A DNA stretch of 32,947 nucleotides from a virus, in the UHGV virus genome UHGV-0038968. One strand, given 5' to 3'. A model generated the notes under the pieces. It was given only the letters and a program-made list of their open reading frames with translations. It had not been told where the DNA came from and searched no databases. Position numbers and translations under genes: made by a program. Position 1 is the stretch's first letter. Each line of letters opens with the position of its first letter. Positions 1,861 to 28,561 of this stretch are shown here, one piece after another.

Positions 1861-2909
1861 GAAATCGTCCCCAGAACCGCCAGTTCATTTTTTGCAATGG
1901 AGATATTGTCCGCCGGTGCAAGCAACTGATGGCTGTATTCCCCGTTCGCACCGGAAATCGCTTCACTGATACGTGACACCTTCAGTTCTCCCTGCGGATA
2001 ACCATCACGCAGCAGGAACGAACGCAACTCGGCGGTGATGGCAGCCCGTATTTCCGGTGTGTCCGGCGTCACGCGGATATGAAAATCCACCGTATGTGCC
2101 ACCGGCCTGAACACATACAAATCAGAGCCTGCCACCGGGGCCAGTGGCCCGATATGTTGTCTTGCCGCCGTTTCCGTTGATTCTTCCGGAATGGGATTAA
2201 TCAGGTCACTGCTGGCAATCATCACACCGACAGTTCCCGTTCCCATCCAGTGACGGTATGTCCATGCGCGGGTAATGCCGGGCACTTCTTTAGCCCAGAC
2301 GACATAGTCCCCGTCAGCCCCGCCCTGCGGCGTCCAGTAATACCGCTCAATGACGCGGGCGCGCCACGTTTCCAGATCTTCAGTATCGAATCCGCCAGTC
2401 AGGGTATCTGCAACACCGGAAGACGGCAGACCATTCACCGGCGTGACCAGGATTAATGCCGTACCGTCGTCAGCGTTACCGACCGCGCCTGTAGTTGAGC
2501 AAGTGATCGGCACACGCAGGACACCACCGGAGCTGGTTGCATCGGCAGTTGCCGTGTACTGAACCAGGTCATCGCGCTGAATAACACTCCCGGCGGTCAC
2601 CTTCAGGCCATCGCTGACACCTTCCCAGCGCACATACCCGCTGGCAGCCGTGGCCCCCTTGCGCGGACACCGTTTCATCGCAGCATGTCGCGCCAGCCAG
2701 GACTCATCGCACAGGTCAGGCAGCATATTCATTGCCAGATAATCGATGTACCCGTAAACCGTATGCAGCGCCGCCGCATACACCTTTGCCCGCACGTCTT
2801 CATCCATGCGCCGGAGCGTGTCGCTGACGTCCAGCCTGGCGAATAAATCGTTACGGAGCATACTGATATTTTCTGCCAGCGTCGGGCGCTGAAATTCACT
2901 GTCCGCCAT
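1851..2909 (-). CDS. Baseplate J-like protein (Mu gp47-like)
   Basis: 352 aa; size and position in a Mu-like baseplate cluster; translation consistent with baseplate J family. Confidence 0.75.
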
Positions 2910-3324
2910 GCGTTATCGCACTCCACAGATCATCAAAAGAAATCATTACCGGTCCGTCACGACGCCAGAGAGTGATACTGTTACCCAGCTCATTAATCCC
3001 GGTGCGGCGGATATCCAGATCAATACGGGACACCACGCCGTCATCAATCATCCATTGCAGGCATTCGCGGATATACCCCCTTACCGTCTGCACCAGCTGA
3101 TTGGTCAGTTTGCTGCGCTGAAGCAGCCACAGTCGGGAGCCGTAACGGTCATTCTGTACCGCAGGCCAGGTATCCCCCCACCATCCCATCGGGACGTCGG
3201 CGTTGTCATCAGGCTCAGCCCGCCGCCAGGTAAACAGGGAAATCACCACGGCGCGGGTCAGCGGATCCAGCGGTGCGCTGGCGCAGGTGCGTTTACCGTT
3301 CACCGTCAGCCACAGTTCCATCAT
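2896..3324 (-). CDS. Baseplate protein, Mu gp46-like
   Basis: 142 aa; lies between the V-like spike and J-like genes, overlapping both neighbours. Confidence 0.6.
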   Translation of the reverse strand: MMELWLTVNGKRTCASAPLDPLTRAVVISLFTWRRAEPDDNADVPMGWWGDTWPAVQNDRYGSRLWLLQRSKLTNQLVQTVRGYIRECLQWMIDDGVVSRIDLDIRRTGINELGNSITLWRRDGPVMISFDDLWSAITHGGQ

Positions 3325-3869
3325 GCCTCCATCGCTTTATCAGGTTTGTCGGTGTTACTGCCCTGACCGTTCTCTCTGTGACGATGCCCGTTATAGGCAA
3401 GCCGCATCGCTGACATGGTGGTGCCGCCGGAGTCGCACAGGTCTTTCACCTGTCCTGTCACTTCCAGGTCCATTTCAAAACGTGCTTTAGGTGAATTGCG
3501 AAACGTGATCGTTTTACCTGCACCCTCCACCACGATCCCCTCCCGGGTCAGCGTCACGGACTGCCCCTGATCGTCATAGACAGCCACCTCACCCGTCTGC
3601 AGCCCTTTCAGGCGGTAGCGCCGGTCCGACACCGTAACAACCACCGCATGAGAACGGTCGCCATCCGGAAACAACACCACCGCTTCCGCACCGCTGTTTG
3701 CCCTTGCGGTAAAACCGTAGGGTTCAAGATGTTCAACCCCGGCTTTGGGTTCACCGGCAATCAGGGACACATCCACGGTCTGACATTTCGTGGCGGCACT
3801 GATGCTTTTCACCACGGCCCGCCCAATCAGGCCGAGGAGTTGTCGCTGCATGGCTTCAATCGTCCTCAT
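3321..3869 (-). CDS. Baseplate assembly protein V-like (spike, Mu gp45-like)
   Basis: 182 aa; position and size match baseplate V/spike proteins. Confidence 0.65.
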   Translation of the reverse strand: MRTIEAMQRQLLGLIGRAVVKSISAATKCQTVDVSLIAGEPKAGVEHLEPYGFTARANSGAEAVVLFPDGDRSHAVVVTVSDRRYRLKGLQTGEVAVYDDQGQSVTLTREGIVVEGAGKTITFRNSPKARFEMDLEVTGQVKDLCDSGGTTMSAMRLAYNGHRHRENGQGSNTDKPDKAMEA

Positions 3870-4948
3870 CAGAACGGGTCCTCCTGTACTCTGGCTTTTT
3901 TCTTTTTCCGCGCGCCGGGGGCTTCGGGTTCAGGCAGATAAGCATCAGGTGGGCCGACACGGATTTCCGTCAGGGTGCCGTTCTGGTCCTGAGTAAACGT
4001 GACTTCCGAAACAAGCAGTTCGGTATTGTCGAAACCACAGACCGGATCAAAGACAATCACCCGCTGGTTGGGCTGCCACAGCGTACCGTTACCCTGTCGC
4101 CAGCCCTGCACCACATAGGTGGTTTCATCCGTCCGCGCCGCCCGTTGTCTGGCTTCAAAGTCCGCACGGGCAATACAGCCTGCCCCCGTAGCCTGCCCTG
4201 TCTGCCTGATATACATCGGACGGTAACGGGCAATAAATGCGTCCTCTGTGCGGGCCCGCAGCGCGGTGGTGGTGGCCTCACCGAAATCATCGTCGTTTCC
4301 GGCACGCTGCCCCGCCACCTGGTAAACAGAAAACCGCTCCCGGATACTCTTCTCCGTATCGCAGGAAAGGATGTTTTCCCCGAGTACCAGCGCAGTATGT
4401 GCCCGCGTTGAGCCAATACCGCCAATCACCAGCCTGCCGTGCGGGTCGTCGTAAGCCAGTGCCTGCTGCTGACCGAGTATTTTGTTGATTACCTCAATCA
4501 CCGTTTCACCGTGATCAGGCTGAACATCAGGAATAACACCCGACGGCGCACCGCTGTTCACCACCTCAATGCCGAAAGGCGCAGCAAGCGCCTGCGCAAT
4601 CTGCACCAGCGAGCGTCCGTTAAACTGTGTCGGTTCGGCTGCACAGTCAATCAGGTCAGCCGTCAGACTACGTCCGGCAATACCGGTGCTGACCGAACGG
4701 GCATCGTAACGAACGGGAGTCGCCTCCACCCAGCCGGTGATCACCAGCTCATCACCAATCAGCACTTCCACTTTTGAACCGTTTTTAATGCGCGGCTGAA
4801 GCGTGGTGATACCCTCATCTCCCGGCCACTGGCGAGTGATCTCCACACTGAAATCCCGCGCCAGCCGTTCAATACCGGCACCGATGCGCACCGATGTCCA
4901 GCCATTCCACTCCCGGCCATTTACCCGTAGCGTGACATTGTCGTTCAT
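3869..4948 (-). CDS. Tail protein, Mu gpP (gp44)-like baseplate hub
   Basis: 359 aa; follows the DNA-circulation gene as in Mu. Confidence 0.65.
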   Translation of the reverse strand: MNDNVTLRVNGREWNGWTSVRIGAGIERLARDFSVEITRQWPGDEGITTLQPRIKNGSKVEVLIGDELVITGWVEATPVRYDARSVSTGIAGRSLTADLIDCAAEPTQFNGRSLVQIAQALAAPFGIEVVNSGAPSGVIPDVQPDHGETVIEVINKILGQQQALAYDDPHGRLVIGGIGSTRAHTALVLGENILSCDTEKSIRERFSVYQVAGQRAGNDDDFGEATTTALRARTEDAFIARYRPMYIRQTGQATGAGCIARADFEARQRAARTDETTYVVQGWRQGNGTLWQPNQRVIVFDPVCGFDNTELLVSEVTFTQDQNGTLTEIRVGPPDAYLPEPEAPGARKKKKARVQEDPF

Positions 4949-6956: not shown

Positions 6957-8789
6957 CTACCAAAATCGGGTATAGCCAACATCGTGATTTATATCAATGC
7001 CACTGGAGCGTGTTTCCGTAACCCGCATACCTGGTGGCATATTTATAAATGATACCTTGATCTCACCATCAACTTTTGGCGCAGAAGCTTTGTTAATCAT
7101 GAAGGGATTCGGGCCTGTGGCATCGGAGGCGTTGTTTGACTGAGCCAGATCTACCGCCGGATAAGGTGTGTATCCCCGCGCCGGTATTCCCGTCCCATAA
7201 GCATCATAAGCACCCGCGCCCCACTGCGCAGAGTTAATGGCATCGACCGTGTCACCGGAACTGTCGGTAAACCACTCAATAATTGGCTTCAGCTTATCCC
7301 ACATATCCTGAAACCACTTAACAACCGGTCCCCAGTTATTGATCACCATCCCCAGCGGCGACCAGGCAAAAACCTTCTTCAGAAGTTCCCAGCCAGCCTC
7401 AAAATAAGGACCAATGGTTTCCCAGAGCTTCTTAAAATAAGGTCCGACAACATCCCAGTTAGTGATAATTAATCCCGCAGCCAGAGCAATCGCCGTCGCA
7501 ATCATGCCAATCGGCGTCATCGACATAATCCTGCTGACAATACTGATGGCACTGCCCACGCCCATCAATCCCAGTTTCAGAATCGCAAGACCGGCAGCAA
7601 GCCCGACGACGCCGCGAATAACCCGGGGATTTTCATCCGCAAACTTCGTGAATTTTTCCCCTAACTCCCCCAGCCACTGCGTGATGTTCTTAGCGTCACC
7701 AGAAAATGCGCCGCCAATAGCCGCAAGGCCGTTAGTTGCGGTCCCCGTCATTGCCTCCCACAGGTTGGACAGCGTACCAAGCTGAGCCTGAACACGTTTA
7801 TTCAGGCTGGCCTGTTTATTCATCTTCTGCTGGATCTGATCGTAGCCATCCTTTCCTTTATCGATTAGTGCATTGACCACCTGAAGGGTTTCGGCATCAT
7901 CACCAAATATTGCCTTAAGTACACCGGTTCGCTTAACGTCGGTCAGTTTTCGCAGCTTTGCCAGTTGCCTGAACATGTTATCAAGACCGCCAAAACTCCC
8001 TTTGCCATCAGTAAAATCGAGCTGTACCCCGAGTTTCTGGCGGGCCATGATTTTATTGACGTCCCTGATTTTCTTAACGCTTAATCCGGACTGGATAACT
8101 TTTCGCAGGGCATTACCTGCCGACTCCCCGTTCATCCCCATCTGATCCATCATGACACTGATGGGGGCAAGACTCTGTGCAGCCTGAAGACCGTCCTTAT
8201 TCACCATCTTCAGAACAGAGCTGGTTTTAGTGAAGAATGACAGCATGTTGGTATCGTCCACGCCCAGATAAAACGCCTTCTGAATTGTGTCGAACAGCCC
8301 CATCATGTCTTCTGAGGCCGTTCCGGTAGCATCCTGCATCTTTGCGGCAAACTCAGCAGCCGCTTCCGGTGTTTTTTTCAGTTGTACCGCAAGATAAGCT
8401 GTCGCTTTACCCACACCACCAAGAATGTTTTCTGCCGGGATCCCCTGACGCACCAGCATCTGCATCATGTTCTGGAAATCAGCCGTTGTACCGGGTAGCT
8501 GGTTACCCAGGCCAATAGCCAGTTTATTGATGTCCTGAAAGCTCTTTCCAACCTCGCCGTTCGCATCCATCATGGCGACTTTCAGCCCGGTGGCGGCGTT
8601 TTCCTGATCAGCATAAGATTTCAGGGAAAGCGTCAGACCCGCTGCCAGTCCGCCACCAAGCGCCAGCCCACCCTGTGACGCTTCTTCCGCCTGGCGTTTA
8701 AATCCCCGGATTTTCTTTTGCATTTTCGACAGCGCGGGAGAAAGCCTGTCGACACCGGTGATCAACGCCTTAAGCTCAAATTCAGCCAT
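6957..8789 (-). CDS. Tail tape measure protein
   Basis: 610 aa; Ala/Gly-rich with hydrophobic segments; follows the frameshifted chaperone pair. Confidence 0.8.
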   Translation of the reverse strand: MAEFELKALITGVDRLSPALSKMQKKIRGFKRQAEEASQGGLALGGGLAAGLTLSLKSYADQENAATGLKVAMMDANGEVGKSFQDINKLAIGLGNQLPGTTADFQNMMQMLVRQGIPAENILGGVGKATAYLAVQLKKTPEAAAEFAAKMQDATGTASEDMMGLFDTIQKAFYLGVDDTNMLSFFTKTSSVLKMVNKDGLQAAQSLAPISVMMDQMGMNGESAGNALRKVIQSGLSVKKIRDVNKIMARQKLGVQLDFTDGKGSFGGLDNMFRQLAKLRKLTDVKRTGVLKAIFGDDAETLQVVNALIDKGKDGYDQIQQKMNKQASLNKRVQAQLGTLSNLWEAMTGTATNGLAAIGGAFSGDAKNITQWLGELGEKFTKFADENPRVIRGVVGLAAGLAILKLGLMGVGSAISIVSRIMSMTPIGMIATAIALAAGLIITNWDVVGPYFKKLWETIGPYFEAGWELLKKVFAWSPLGMVINNWGPVVKWFQDMWDKLKPIIEWFTDSSGDTVDAINSAQWGAGAYDAYGTGIPARGYTPYPAVDLAQSNNASDATGPNPFMINKASAPKVDGEIKVSFINMPPGMRVTETRSSGIDINHDVGYTRFW

Positions 8790-25301: not shown

Positions 25302-25624
25302 ACTTTCAGCTCCCTCTCATGTAACCAGTGGGCTGCACGCAGCCTGGCGTTTTCCTCACCGGCAAGCAGTGAGCGGATAATCCCGACCGCCTCGCTGTCG
25401 TCGTCCTTCACCGCGGTATGAAGCGTTATCCCCCGGGCCACGCCACGCTTTATCGTGATGACGCCTTTTTTCTCCAGTGCGCGAAGATGCTCCACCGCTG
25501 CATTCACTGAACGGTATCCCAGCATGGTTGCCACCTCCTGATTGGTTGGCGGAAAGCCACGCTCTTTCTGGTAAGAAATCAGCATATCCAGCACCTGCTG
25601 CTGGCATTGAGTTAACGTCGTCAT
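25298..25624 (-). CDS. LexA-like winged-helix DNA-binding protein lacking the peptidase domain
   Basis: Strong resemblance to the LexA N-terminal domain (QQQVLDMLISYQKERGFPPTNQEVATMLGYRSVNAAVEHLRALEKKGVI); start chosen at MTTLTQ where ATG overlaps the upstream stop (TAATG). Confidence 0.7.
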   Translation of the reverse strand: MTTLTQCQQQVLDMLISYQKERGFPPTNQEVATMLGYRSVNAAVEHLRALEKKGVITIKRGVARGITLHTAVKDDDSEAVGIIRSLLAGEENARLRAAHWLHERELKV

Positions 25625-26118
25625 TACGCCCCCACGTAATTCCCTGACAGATACCACTCATCACTCGATACAGCGCGCTTGCTGCTTTTCCGTAAACACT
25701 GCTCACGACGCGCCAGAAAATTGTTTCGTTCTGGCTGGGAGTGGCTTTCACGGAATGCCACCATCCACACCGTTGCAGCACGACGGTATAAGCCCCTGGA
25801 CTCCAGTTCTTCCGCCTGGCGGGTCAGGCACAAAATCTCCCGCGGGTCGTTAGTGCCGACATAGAAATTGCGCACAGGTCTGGTTTCACGAACTGGTTGC
25901 GGTTCCGCCTCCTGCGCTCTCTCAGTCAGGCGCGGGAAATGTCTGCGTGTATCCCCTTCACAACGGTGAGCCACACGACCACTCTGACGTAACTTGCTTG
26001 CTGACTGAAGAACGCGCTGCCGTGAGTAACCTGCAAAAGCATCCGCAATGTCTCCGGAAGTACACCCCGGATGGGCTTCAATGAATTTCTGAACGTCATT
26101 CAAAAGACTCATGATCAC
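25624..26118 (-). CDS. PerC-like regulatory protein (putative)
   Basis: 164 aa; C-terminal LESRGLYRRAATVW matches the PerC/Pch-type motif as I recall it; N-terminal half looks winged-helix-like. Confidence 0.45.
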   Translation of the reverse strand: MIMSLLNDVQKFIEAHPGCTSGDIADAFAGYSRQRVLQSASKLRQSGRVAHRCEGDTRRHFPRLTERAQEAEPQPVRETRPVRNFYVGTNDPREILCLTRQAEELESRGLYRRAATVWMVAFRESHSQPERNNFLARREQCLRKSSKRAVSSDEWYLSGNYVGA

Positions 26119-26933
26119 CCCCTGAATCCTGCCGGGATCTGGCTGTAGTCCACGTTGTCGTAACTGGCTTTGAAGTACGGGTCCTCGCGTCTGGCTGCAG
26201 ATACCGCAGGAACTTCCCAGGATTCTTCGAAATGACGATCCGGACCAAAGAACGTGACAGCCTGTTTCACAAATTGTGTGCCGCTGTTACCCATCGCAGA
26301 TACCCAGCCCGCGTAGCGTTTCACACCTTCCAGCATGGTTTCGGGTTTTACCCCCTCATTCAAACGAGCTTTCCAGGCTTTGAGGGCTGCAGATTTTGAA
26401 TTGCCACCAGCACGTTTGGGGTATGCCAGCCATGCCTGCTCAAACTCCGGAGAGTATTCCGGTCGGTTTGAACGAACTCGCACGGACTCATCAGCAGATG
26501 CACCAACAGCTATTGGTTCATTGACTGGTTCTTTGACTGGTTCAAAAGAGTGACTGGTTCTGGGTGAATCTCCTGCACCACCCCCTGGTGCAACTCCTGC
26601 ACTACCTGGTGAATTTGCTGCACTAGATAGTGAATTATTTGCACTACCCCCTAGTGAATCTCCTGCACCATCAAGATGAAGGAGATAGATATTACTTGAG
26701 TTACCTTTTTCACCTTTCCGGGTGACTTTTTTTACCAGCCCGGAATCACAAAGGGCCGCAATATGATTCATCACAGAACGTTTGCTAATCTCGCACTGGT
26801 CAGCAATATGCTGGTAGCTGGGCCAGCACTCACCCTGATCGCTGGCATTATCAGCCAGCTTGATCAGAACCAGTTTTCGCAATGGATTACCCACTCGAAT
26901 TTTCATCGCTTTAACCATCAGCTCCATACTCAT
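26115..26933 (-). CDS. Replication initiator / replisome organiser (lambda O-like, N-terminal HTH)
   Basis: 272 aa; N-terminal HTH (LRKLVLIKLADNASDQGECWPSYQHIADQCEISKRSVMNHIAALCDSGLV); low-complexity central region encoded by iteron-like repeats. Confidence 0.7.
   Translation of the reverse strand: MSMELMVKAMKIRVGNPLRKLVLIKLADNASDQGECWPSYQHIADQCEISKRSVMNHIAALCDSGLVKKVTRKGEKGNSSNIYLLHLDGAGDSLGGSANNSLSSAANSPGSAGVAPGGGAGDSPRTSHSFEPVKEPVNEPIAVGASADESVRVRSNRPEYSPEFEQAWLAYPKRAGGNSKSAALKAWKARLNEGVKPETMLEGVKRYAGWVSAMGNSGTQFVKQAVTFFGPDRHFEESWEVPAVSAARREDPYFKASYDNVDYSQIPAGFRG
26564..26671. repeat. Five ~18-bp direct repeats (iteron-like) inside the replication initiator gene
   Basis: GGTGAATCTCCTGCACCA, GGTGCAACTCCTGCACTA, GGTGAATTTGCTGCACTA, AGTGAATTATTTGCACTA, AGTGAATCTCCTGCACCA at 26564, 26588, 26609, 26630, 26654 (spacing 24/21/21/24). 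Confidence 0.6.
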
Positions 26934-27166
26934 GCTGCACCTCCGAGATGCTTCATGTTTTTTCCGGAGCGAAAGGCAATAAGCGGCATACTGACGCGGT
27001 AATTGCGGCCCAGCGGTTCACAAATCACCTTCTGACATTCACAGTCAACCAGGCTGACACGTAGAACATGCCCTGCTGGCGTGGTGTACCACTGCCCAAC
27101 TGTGGGTGTTGATATTTTTTTACGCTGAAATAAACGGTAAATGTTGAGGAGCAACGGATTAAGCAT
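26930..27166 (-). CDS. Small hypothetical protein (78 aa, Cys-containing)
   Basis: Overlaps both neighbours by a few nt in an operon-like arrangement; no family recognised. Confidence 0.4.
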   Translation of the reverse strand: MLNPLLLNIYRLFQRKKISTPTVGQWYTTPAGHVLRVSLVDCECQKVICEPLGRNYRVSMPLIAFRSGKNMKHLGGAA

Positions 27167-27995
27167 GACGATGCCCTCCGCTGATATTCAGGAGACGGTG
27201 AATATGAAAATTAGCCTTATCCGCCAGACGAATACGTTCAGCTTGCAAGTTAAGAAGGGTTTCTACCAGAACCTGATGTGCCTGCGGATCCGAAAGAGTT
27301 ACCTTGCGCAGAGCACGTAGTGCAGTTGTTACATAACTGAGTTTATGTAAGTCTTCATCATTCAGACGAGTGAGGGCTGGGACAGTAGCCATGATGGCAG
27401 CCTCCTTGATCGGTGAAATACTTCCACCACCGGAAACGCCAATTTCGCTGGTGGTGAACTGAACGGGGTTGGCGTAACCGGTGATCAAGGAAACCGGCGC
27501 ATCTTTCGATGCCCCCGCCCAGCCCACCATAACTTTGATGTGAGCAAATGCGGACGATAAAAAAGACGCTGGCGCGTCATATATCGCCTTGATCAATTCC
27601 AGGACGCCAATCCCGGCACCCGCTTTATAAGGTGCCTGAACAGTGTAACGTCCCGGAATGGCAGAATCAATGTGCTGGTGGTCCTTCACACTCAACAAAA
27701 TCACGCCTGAATTTCCACAAAGGGCTAAAGCACTCATGCGGGTAGTCTTTGCGAAGATAGATAACGCGCTGTGTTTCTGACTCCCAACGAATAACATGAA
27801 CATAAAGTCCTCTTCCGTCACGAAACCAGCGGTTAAGTTCCTGCACAACTCGCCCCCCACAGTCAGGTAAAGTTCTCTGTGGTTACTTACAGCCAGGAGA
27901 TTTGGTAATCTGCATTCATGCCGTAACAACACGTGTTCAGCGACGCTGACCACCAGCTGTTGCGACAAACGGTTATTTGCCGTTAAACTGTTCAT
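27159..27995 (-). CDS. Hypothetical protein (278 aa), unknown function, early-right operon
   Basis: Long ORF tightly packed between the CII/YdaT-like gene and the small ORF; no motif recognised (no Walker A). Confidence 0.55.
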   Translation of the reverse strand: MNSLTANNRLSQQLVVSVAEHVLLRHECRLPNLLAVSNHRELYLTVGGELCRNLTAGFVTEEDFMFMLFVGSQKHSALSIFAKTTRMSALALCGNSGVILLSVKDHQHIDSAIPGRYTVQAPYKAGAGIGVLELIKAIYDAPASFLSSAFAHIKVMVGWAGASKDAPVSLITGYANPVQFTTSEIGVSGGGSISPIKEAAIMATVPALTRLNDEDLHKLSYVTTALRALRKVTLSDPQAHQVLVETLLNLQAERIRLADKANFHIHRLLNISGGHRHA

Positions 27996-28561
27996 GCGTT
28001 AGTTTCTCCACAACCAGAAGCAATCGACGCCACGACGCCCGGAGCTGCACACTCGCGGGCGTCATTACTTTCTGAAATGCAAAAGATTTTGTAGACCAGT
28101 GCTGCATGCTCCTGCAGCTTCGAAATTGAGAGATACAGCTCGTCGTTAATTGCTGTCTTCTCATGCGGTTCCACTACACCGTCTTCGATTGCTGAACGAA
28201 TCTGTTTTGAATAACTGCCGATCTGTTCAATGACTTCCAGCAGACGCTGGTTAATATCGGCGTTGTCCACATCCTCGACGTCAGGAAGAGACACAAAGAC
28301 GCCATTTGCAGACTGCGCCACAGCGTCAGCAATGAAGTGAGTTCCACCAGCACGTTGCAAAATCATTGCCCATCCCAGCGGGAAAATCTGATCGCCATCG
28401 GCACGAAGGCGGTTAAATAATGCGTTCTCTGTTACATCCAGCCAGTCAGCTGCTTCAGCGTAACCACCCGGCAACTTTGCGATAGTTTTTCTGACAGCTT
28501 TCACGTACCACTCAGGCTGTTTTTCTACTTTCCAGTGATGCTTACCCACGGTTAGCCTCAT
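27992..28561 (-). CDS. CII-like / YdaT-like early regulatory protein (putative)
   Basis: 189 aa; second gene after cro on the rightward operon, the position CII-type regulators occupy; assignment tentative. Confidence 0.4.
   Translation of the reverse strand: MRLTVGKHHWKVEKQPEWYVKAVRKTIAKLPGGYAEAADWLDVTENALFNRLRADGDQIFPLGWAMILQRAGGTHFIADAVAQSANGVFVSLPDVEDVDNADINQRLLEVIEQIGSYSKQIRSAIEDGVVEPHEKTAINDELYLSISKLQEHAALVYKIFCISESNDARECAAPGVVASIASGCGETNA

Follow-up and report, generated by a model that had tools for sequence, protein, structure and literature searches.

The stretch of viral DNA analysed here (UHGV virus genome UHGV-0038968; 32,947 nucleotides (nt), referred to below in its entirety as the window) is an SfV-like lambdoid prophage. 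This work concerns a 278-codon open reading frame (ORF) of its early-right operon, the small RNAs predicted within that frame, and the 78-codon ORF (p78) that follows it. Between positions 26100 and 28600 the DNA is 95% identical to orf36-orf40 of Shigella phage SfV, and shares 93-95% identity with Escherichia phages 2H10 and Ayreon as well as with Stx2c phages. The operon is encoded on the minus strand and has the order cro-like gene, cII/YmfL-like gene, 278-codon ORF, p78 and O-like initiator gene, followed by genes for PerC-like, LexA DNA-binding domain (LexA-DBD) and RusA proteins. Its central genes are closely coupled: the stop codon of the cII/YmfL-like gene and the start of the 278-codon ORF share the sequence ATGA, the end of this ORF overlaps the start of p78 by 8 nt, and the p78 stop and the O-like start again share ATGA.

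An earlier reading of the same DNA by a model (the original prediction) had placed two overlapping ORFs without recognisable motifs between the CII-like and O-like genes. Both ORFs are present and overlap as described (they correspond to orf37 and orf38 of SfV), but the statement that they lack motifs did not hold, since the region contains a match to Pfam Phage_ASH, two Rfam RNAs, and a DUF4222 gene in another reading frame. Similarly, the 278-aa (amino acid) protein, which had been left without a known family, shows a profile match to a regulatory family (Ash) together with conserved synteny. A sequence matching the 278-codon ORF is present in 1577 of 5426 complete Escherichia coli genomes, and is named "ash family protein" where the annotation was examined; the best 120 homologues of the ORF are all 88-99% identical. 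The RefSeq model of an identical E. coli locus comprises a DUF4222 protein (59 aa) and a 181-aa "ash" protein, and no single 278-aa protein. The 278-codon ORF (below, the long frame) is real as an open frame, while most of its length does not behave as protein-coding sequence. The features of the region are presented in Table 1.

Table 1. Features of the early-right operon of the window in the region of the long frame, listed in the direction of transcription.
Feature	Position	Strand	Remarks
cII/YmfL-like gene	27992-28561	-	Matches Pfam Phage_CP76 and NCBIfam YmfL; 97% identical to e14 ymfL
Long frame ("278-aa ORF", SfV orf37)	27159-27995	-	278-codon ORF, from the cII-like stop to the p78 start
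Spacer	27847-27995	-	First ~48-49 codons of the long frame; variable; between the cII-like gene and DUF4222
DUF4222 gene	27667-27846	-	59 aa; overlaps the 5' third of the long ORF in the -1 frame; starts with GTG after a G-rich Shine-Dalgarno sequence
Candidate promoter	27642-27670	-	TTGATT, 17 nt, TACACT; +1 near 27635
isrK-like RNA (P4 seqA equivalent)	27559-27635	-	Rfam RF01394, 64.2 bits (gathering 50), E 1e-11
Upstream target site UGAUCAAGG	27587-27595	-	Inside the isrK element; unpaired in the predicted fold
Intrinsic terminator of the isrK element	27559-27578	-	Hairpin and U6
C4/CI-type antisense RNA	27447-27534	-	Rfam RF01695, 82.3 bits (gathering 45), E 6e-15; full-length match
C4 specificity loop UUUCCUUGAUCA	27482-27493	-	Loop of the second hairpin
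Downstream target GAUCAAGGAGG (P4 seqC equivalent)	27401-27411	-	Overlaps the Shine-Dalgarno sequence AAGGAGG of the nested ORF (ATG at 27390-27392)
Nested in-frame ORF	27159-27392	-	77 aa; position of P4 kil and Gifsy-1 anrP; Shine-Dalgarno sequence AAGGAGG, 8 nt, ATG
p78 (SfV orf38)	26930-27166	-	78-codon ORF; small beta-barrel product, predicted
O-like initiator gene (orf39)	26115-26933	-	HTH_36 and PHROG matches
Five iterons	26564-26680		~21-24 bp (GTGAAT..TGCAC); in the linker-coding part of the O-like gene
Three TGACTGGTTC repeats	26514-26561		In the same part of the O-like gene as the iterons

An Rfam search performed at gathering thresholds revealed two RNA matches within the long frame, on its own strand: an isrK-like RNA, which ends in an intrinsic terminator, and, downstream of it, a C4/CI-type antisense RNA. 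The C4 sequence folds into the Rfam consensus structure with a minimum free energy of -45.4 kcal/mol (z -4.86). The loop of its second hairpin, UUUCCUUGAUCA, is complementary both to the site UGAUCAAGG located in the isrK element and to the sequence GAUCAAGGAGG at the Shine-Dalgarno (SD) sequence of the nested ORF.

Covariation and variability within this cassette were assessed in an alignment of 32 distinct variants. The 17-bp stem of C4 is 100% paired and contains 5 compensatory pairs; hairpin 1 is also 100% paired, with 4 of its 5 pairs compensatory, and the stems together hold 9 pairs that have changed on both sides. The loop-to-SD interaction comprises 11 pairs (94% paired, 7 double-changed), and that between the loop and the isrK site comprises 9 pairs (97% paired, 7 double-changed). 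For the latter, the covariation reached 0.914 versus 0.226 in shuffled data, a value attained by none of 500 shuffles, and slid controls gave 29-50% pairing. At least 8 loop specificity types could be distinguished, each of them accompanied by matching targets, and all three sites co-vary. The cargo ORFs located downstream shuffle independently of the loop type, as one loop type is found with different ORFs. According to Rfam, the pair of isrK and C4 RNAs is also present in P4, ST64B, phiP27, and the Stx2a, TL-2011c, Klebsiella and Yersinia phages; these RNAs are annotated in none of the records examined.

The isrK element is preceded by a candidate promoter. Its TTGATT hexamer (27665-27670) overlaps the stop codon of the DUF4222 gene, and the first base of the isrK model is placed 7 nt after TACACT. 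This candidate is invariant across the 32 variants, promoter-like hexamers occur at the equivalent position in the P4, Klebsiella and Yersinia phage copies, and the homology common to the window and phiP27 starts at the -35 hexamer (TTGATT). In the segment 27430-27460, the 3' strand of the outer stem of C4 (CACCACC) can alternatively pair with a downstream GGUGGUG, an arm that differs among the types; a structural switch between the C4 fold and a hairpin placed before the SD sequence is possible.

The long frame matches Pfam Phage_ASH (PF10554) with an E value of 1e-18 (68 bits, cutoff 26). This match extends over residues 117-210 (nt 27366-27647), and it is filled by the isrK and C4 RNAs and the SD sequence that follows them. 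The variable columns of the cassette are distributed over the three codon positions as 52, 55 and 47, i.e. without codon periodicity or purifying selection on the Ash region at the protein level, and the variation tracks the RNA pairing. The long ORF of P4 (8168-8812) shows a Pfam Ash match over residues 37-161, which cover both its isrK-like element and its C4 match, the CI RNA. The reading frame around the RNAs is broken in the copies of the Yersinia, Klebsiella and TL-2011c phages. Judged by these patterns, the Pfam Ash match is a conceptual translation of the RNAs, as in phage P4. Residues M156-A278 of the long frame correspond to PHROG 4908, and a PDB sequence search with the 278-aa protein was uninformative.

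The 5' third of the long frame contains a second coding sequence. An alignment with e14, whose ymfL is the close relative of the cII-like gene of the window (97% identity), served as the first pointer: the substitutions between the two sit at third positions of a frame other than the 278 frame. The 59-aa ORF encoded there matches Pfam PF13973 (DUF4222) with 51.4 bits (cutoff 27) and phrog_1343 with an E value of 4.5e-36. In 52 distinct natural variants, the polymorphisms of the overlap fall at the DUF4222 codon positions as 2, 1 and 10, with 11 synonymous and 3 non-synonymous changes, whereas 2 changes are synonymous and 12 non-synonymous when these sites are translated in the 278 frame. The DUF4222 frame and the long frame are, respectively, 90% and 70% identical to those of ST64B, 81% and 40% identical to those of a Stx2a phage, and 61% and 33% identical to those of e14. 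By these counts, the purifying selection acting on the 5' third of the long ORF is borne by the DUF4222 frame. The spacer located upstream of this gene lacks a coding signature in every frame (8, 9 and 8 polymorphic sites at the three codon positions; 10 synonymous, 18 non-synonymous), and is poorly conserved with respect to e14.

A run of six G residues (G GGG GGC, at ~27852-27862) is located directly upstream of the DUF4222 GTG codon and fits a slippery heptamer. We considered a programmed -1 frameshift at this run, which would fuse the first 48 codons to DUF4222, and rejected it; the run is more likely an SD sequence than a slippery site. In e14 and in the relatives L086 and L091 there is no slippery site, and DUF4222 has its own SD-like motifs and start codons. 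An extra G in the IMG/VR copy L006 puts the first 48 codons in frame with DUF4222, and ATA replaces the nested ATG; because of the latter change this copy looks decaying or mis-sequenced.

The e14 ymfL-ymfM-ymfN region resembles the window in that an ATGA-coupled long frame (ymfM) overlaps a DUF4222 ORF, which abuts an O-like gene, and differs from it by the lack of the isrK/C4 cassette and of p78. In the K-12 reference, the e14 interval 7823-8181 (record L003) is annotated as ymfM, encoding a 112-aa "cell division inhibitor". The nested DUF4222 ORF (59 aa, 8002-8181, TTG start, SD sequence AAGGAG) is read in another frame and is far better conserved than ymfM; in other MG1655 assemblies the Prokaryotic Genome Annotation Pipeline calls DUF4222 in place of ymfM. 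The 5' part of the long frame (27667-27995) is homologous to this ymfM/DUF4222 region, the expression of which has been published to give filamentation. Since the published filamentation clone carries both frames, either product could be responsible.

The nested ORF occupies the end of the long frame and is read in the same frame. Its polymorphisms are distributed over the codon positions as 9, 1 and 10, which is a coding signature, and by this measure it is the protein-coding part of the long ORF. The 77-aa product is predicted by AF2 to form a helical hairpin (predicted local distance difference test score, pLDDT, 84). A Foldseek comparison of this model with the PDB returned generic helical hairpins only, and the ORF gave no match in Pfam and no defence match in PADLOC. 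In relatives, Rha-type antirepressor-like ORFs of 120-185 aa begin at the same "MAT" sequence, and their position corresponds to that of Gifsy-1 anrP. A second conserved in-frame ATG (M156, 27528-27530) is located where orf45 of Gifsy-1 begins. The original prediction had also offered accessory cargo embedded in the early operon, such as a toxin or defence function, as an alternative. This part stands insofar as the region appears to be a swappable RNA-immunity cassette with interchangeable cargo ORFs, preceded by a part homologous to the filamentation-causing ymfM region of e14.

Upstream of codon 202, the long frame displays neither codon periodicity nor amino-acid constraint, and in every lineage examined the frame that starts at the cII-like stop runs uninterrupted to the start of p78. 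Such openness has a chance probability of 0.067 in the spacer, as estimated from shuffles, of 0.035 in the DUF4222 overlap, as estimated by synonymous recoding, and of 0.023 in the cassette; both indels observed among the cassette variants are of 3 nt. The slot between DUF4222 and p78 is a hot-spot for insertion; its cargo includes RNA immunity cassettes as well as toxin-antitoxin-like pairs and a SWIM-domain gene encoded on the opposite strand. In the Salmonella relative L091, the cassette has been replaced (2727-3375) by two opposite-strand genes of the TumE and HVO_A0114 families, and the frame extends for 388 codons through the antisense strand of these inserts (P 0.015), with 10-13 stops in the other frames. 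The IMG/VR locus L098 contains a frame of 731 codons, which starts 3 nt past the upstream gene and ends on the p78 start. This frame crosses (i) DUF4222, out of frame, (ii) the antisense strand of HigA-like, Gp49/HigB-like and SWIM genes, (iii) isrK and C4, and (iv) a Rha-type ORF. The inserts of L098 (1021-2125) lie on the opposite strand and have a G+C content of 42%; the frame has a chance probability of 0.0047, and the other frames contain 17 and 27 stops.

In P4, translation of the long ORF eta reportedly prevents Rho-dependent termination, and the nested kil is said to be the immunity-controlled product. By analogy, we infer that the long frame of the window may act as an eta-like bridge, escorting transcription to p78 and the O-like gene. 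A more general form of this idea, which we put forward tentatively and rate as slightly short of probable, is that of an "anti-polarity bridge" selected only for its openness, in which ribosomes loaded where the preceding gene ends would escort RNA polymerase across the cargo hot-spot to p78 and the O-like gene; genes inserted at the hot-spot would then be expected to avoid codons that introduce stops into this frame. The e14 ymfM (SfiC) could be the version of this frame present in e14, and the SOS-inducible division inhibitor could be the nested DUF4222 protein.

The cassette type is already known from P4, P1/P7 and Gifsy-1. The immunity region of P4 (P_LE, seqA, cI RNA, seqC and nested eta/kil, upstream of alpha) contains the same two Rfam RNAs in the same order as the window. 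The two regions also share (i) the three-way complementarity between the loop, seqA and seqC, the SD-ATG sequence GGAGGCTGCCATCATGGCTAC and the "EAAIMAT" junction, (ii) a long ORF that begins ahead of the cassette promoter, spans the RNAs and matches Pfam Ash, (iii) a short nested ORF with its own SD sequence, in frame at the end of the long ORF (65 aa in P4, 77 aa in the window), and (iv) the placement of the cassette upstream of replication genes. In contrast to the satellite P4, the window is a cI/cro lambdoid phage. Its long frame shows coupling to a cII-like gene and an overlap with DUF4222, its nested ORF is unrelated to Kil, and p78 and the O-like gene are found downstream instead of epsilon, orf151 and alpha. 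The mechanism of P4 is known experimentally, whereas that proposed for the window is drawn from its sequence.

In the immI region of P1/P7, a C4-family RNA uses a single-stranded segment to pair with the ribosome-binding site of the ORF that follows it, and heteroimmune types differ in the pairing bases. The c4-icd-ant region resembles the window in having a C4-family RNA (Rfam RF01695) that targets the ribosome-binding site of the next ORF, but an isrK-type upstream element of the same form is missing from P1, whose cargo genes and genome context are also different. In Gifsy-1, IsrK has its own promoter and a leaky terminator, and is followed by a structured RNA/short ORF, orf45, and by the antirepressor-like anrP, which is translated by coupling (Hershko-Shalev et al. 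2016, PMC4825925). Gifsy-1 IsrK is a structural homologue of P4 seqA, the isrK locus is homologous to P4 seqA/CI, and the C4-type RNA of P4 is the CI RNA (PMC4825925). As in Gifsy-1, an isrK element with a terminator is placed ahead of a downstream ORF in the window, and its relatives carry Rha-type ORFs at the position of anrP. The window differs from Gifsy-1 in that no stop separates the orf45-like frame from the cargo ORF, which encodes a 77-aa protein predicted to be helical, and in that the cassette is located inside the early-right operon, between the cII-like and replication genes.

Based on these comparisons, it is probable that the 278-codon ORF constitutes the lambdoid equivalent of the P4 region eta/kil-cI, related to c4-icd-ant of P1/P7 and isrK-orf45-anrP of Gifsy-1, and that it encodes neither a loader nor a conventional regulator. 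In the proposed mechanism, the cassette promoter would give rise to IsrK, and read-through followed by processing would produce the C4 RNA. Pairing of C4 with the SD sequence would block translation of the 77-aa ORF and favour termination, and transcripts initiated at the internal promoter, or those of a superinfecting phage of the same type, would then give no expression of p78 and the O-like gene. IsrK could titrate C4. After induction, translation of the early-right transcripts would continue from the cII-like gene directly into the long frame; ribosomes would pass over the terminator, the C4 structure and its targets, and the message, made insensitive in this way, would reach the replication genes. 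According to this proposal, the frame stays open while its amino acids drift because ribosomes must traverse the RNA elements.

The two ORFs had also drawn attention as possible replication functions. No match to the DnaC, DnaB or lambda P families was found in Pfam, NCBIfam or PHROG among the early genes, including the 278-aa and 78-aa ORFs, and the Walker A motif is absent from the ORFs of the early region. Among the long ORFs, such a motif occurs only far from this region, in an open stretch of 616 codons at ~8564 (minus strand), which is taken to be the putative large terminase. The same loader-less gene order, from cI to Q, is annotated in SfV and 2H10. In phiP27, in a Stx2a phage and in a Citrobacter prophage, the cassette and p78 precede genes for O, DnaC-like and DnaB-like proteins.

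The O-like protein contains an HTH_36 domain at its N-terminus, while its C-terminal region matches DnaD-like and primosomal PHROGs; it also matches a PHROG of replication initiators, and a PDB sequence search with this protein was uninformative. The polymorphisms of the gene (3, 0 and 13 by codon position) point to strong purifying selection. The iterons and TGACTGGTTC repeats together delimit a segment (26514-26680) that is likely to be a replication origin situated inside the O-like gene; no DnaA boxes were detected in it. As in lambda O/P and P22 18/12, the initiator gene of the window follows cII in the early-right operon and carries iterons within its coding sequence. It differs from both in having no P, DnaC-like or DnaB-like partner, and in the HTH_36 N-terminus and DnaD-like/primosomal C-terminus of the initiator.

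The p78 family is narrow and enterobacterial, with 20 cluster representatives in 1.84 billion proteins; a larger collection contains 109 members, all named "hypothetical", and a search of genome contigs with p78 indicated a single locus. The fold is that of a small Tudor/KOW-like beta-barrel with no ATPase or nucleotide-binding motif. Weak matches link p78 with DUF4222: BLASTP (E values 6e-5 and 0.005), hhalign (probability 52%, E 1.4e-4), below-threshold Pfam DUF4222 matches of 2 out of 8 family members (best E 0.0037), and a match of DUF4222 to the p78 PHROG (E 0.003). Judging from these sequence similarities, p78 is probably related to DUF4222. In every locus with a downstream gene examined, the p78 stop overlaps the start of an O-like gene (of various O types), and in many relatives p78 is preceded by an ordinary small gene and not by the cassette. 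As this coupling occurs whether or not DnaC-like and DnaB-like genes are present, p78 is therefore regarded as a partner or leader of the initiator gene, and not as a substitute for a loader.

Several points weigh against the P4-like interpretation of the long frame. The candidate promoter, which was read from the sequence, agrees with the consensus at 8 of 12 positions and falls below the scan threshold, and the isrK fold taken alone is no more stable than that of shuffled sequences (z -0.8). The statistics on the open frame were computed post hoc, on lineages that are not completely independent; moreover, e14 retains the long frame (ymfM) though the cassette is absent. The nested 77-aa ORF gave no BLASTP alignment to P4 Kil and no informative family match. 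RefSeq models a 181-aa protein and PHROG 3960/821 are labelled "transcriptional regulator", and a translated "Ash" polypeptide may itself be functional. The direction of regulation is proposed by analogy with systems that differ in this respect: Gifsy-1 IsrK activates translation, P4 relies on termination and P1 on a translational block. Finally, replication through the O-like protein, its internal iterons and host DnaB/DnaC, although most likely, is deduced from the absence of a loader.

Four other explanations were weighed against this interpretation. We regard as very unlikely a reading in which the Rfam matches are incidental and the 278-aa (or 181-aa) product is a true transcriptional regulator of the Ash family. 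The E value of the Pfam match (1e-18), the PHROG 3960/821 label, the NCBI name "ash family protein" and the frame being open in all relatives would all agree with such a protein, but the Ash region lacks codon periodicity (52, 55, 47), its variation is compensatory for the RNA helices and the three-way RNA-RNA pairing, the Yersinia, Klebsiella and TL-2011c RNAs lie in broken frames, and in P4 the Ash match covers the Rfam isrK-like and C4 RNAs. A less extreme view accepts the RNA cassette as functional and treats the long frame as untranslated, its openness being due to hitch-hiking or chance; the products would then be only DUF4222, the nested 77-aa ORF (perhaps in its M156 or V98 form) and p78. 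We consider this unlikely as well, since the frame is improbably open in three separate segments of the window and across unrelated antisense inserts (P 0.015 in L091 and 0.0047 in L098), its start always abuts the upstream stop, its end always overlaps the p78 start, and indels come in multiples of 3. What speaks for it is that the first 200 codons show no amino-acid constraint, that RefSeq does not call the long ORF, that the phiP27 ORF begins directly upstream of the cassette, and that the G+C-rich RNA region is stop-poor in any frame (2 each).

The region may also be viewed chiefly as a host-toxic module, in which the ymfM-like/DUF4222 part or the 77-aa ORF at the kil position inhibits division or kills the host, and the RNAs serve only for silencing. 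This deserves more weight than the two preceding explanations, although on balance it too is rather unlikely. Expression of the homologous e14 ymfM/DUF4222 region causes filamentation; P4 Kil, encoded at the equivalent position, is reportedly toxic, and Icd of P1, again at the equivalent position, inhibits division. However, the 77-aa ORF shows no similarity to Kil, and the cargo at its position is interchangeable with Rha-type antirepressor-like ORFs. DUF4222 is located upstream of the cassette promoter and therefore would not be controlled by C4. The least probable explanation, which we regard as highly improbable, is the one that the original prediction had raised: that the 278-aa or the 78-aa ORF replaces lambda P or DnaC as a loader for the O-like initiator. 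The early region does lack a loader gene, as had been claimed, and p78 is always coupled to an O-like gene. Nevertheless, the same p78 and cassette precede complete sets of O, DnaC-like and DnaB-like genes, p78 is a 78-aa Tudor/KOW-like barrel with no nucleotide-binding motif, the 278-codon ORF consists mostly of RNA genes, and e14 and Salmonella L091 have no cassette. The other possibility mentioned there, an O-like initiator acting with host factors, proved to be the best reading, as the same module occurs in isolated phages without a loader gene. The missing loader would then be a property of the O-like module, with nothing hidden in the two ORFs.

With regard to the P4-like interpretation, the following aspects appear to be new: (i) the placement of the cassette between the cII-like and replication genes of SfV-like and Stx phages, (ii) the set of co-varying specificity types, (iii) the recognition of the Ash family as translated RNA, and (iv) the bridging frame that persists across unrelated inserts. 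The annotation "ash family protein" would hide an antisense-RNA switch of the P4/P1 type, which in SfV-like and Stx-converting phages immediately precedes the replication genes. If the interpretation is true, these phages possess a second, RNA-based layer of immunity with at least 8 exchangeable specificities, which would have a bearing on superinfection exclusion, prophage induction and the replication of Stx phages, and the Pfam Ash family is largely translated RNA. The bridging frame points to a general means by which phages may keep an operon readable across mobile inserts, and the frame behind the SfiC/YmfM division block of e14 becomes directly testable.

Inspection of the relatives provided some further observations. 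In Klebsiella phage ST11-OXA245phi3.2 (L088) and TL-2011c (L089), the annotated antirepressor/Rha coding sequence begins at "MAT", and no annotation is given for the isrK/C4 RNAs that precede it. TL-2011c also contains an Rfam sRNA-Xcc1 match (3468-3551) directly downstream of the Rha gene, and the Yersinia phage (L087) an Rfam ryfA match (1229-1527) near the cassette. Downstream of the O-like gene, SfV carries between the PerC-like and LexA-DBD genes a gene named dam (product "phosphoadenosine phosphosulfate reductase"), which the window lacks (intervals compared: SfV 3872-4525, window 25624-26118). At the position of SfV dam, the Salmonella relative L092 has a MethyltransfD12 gene.

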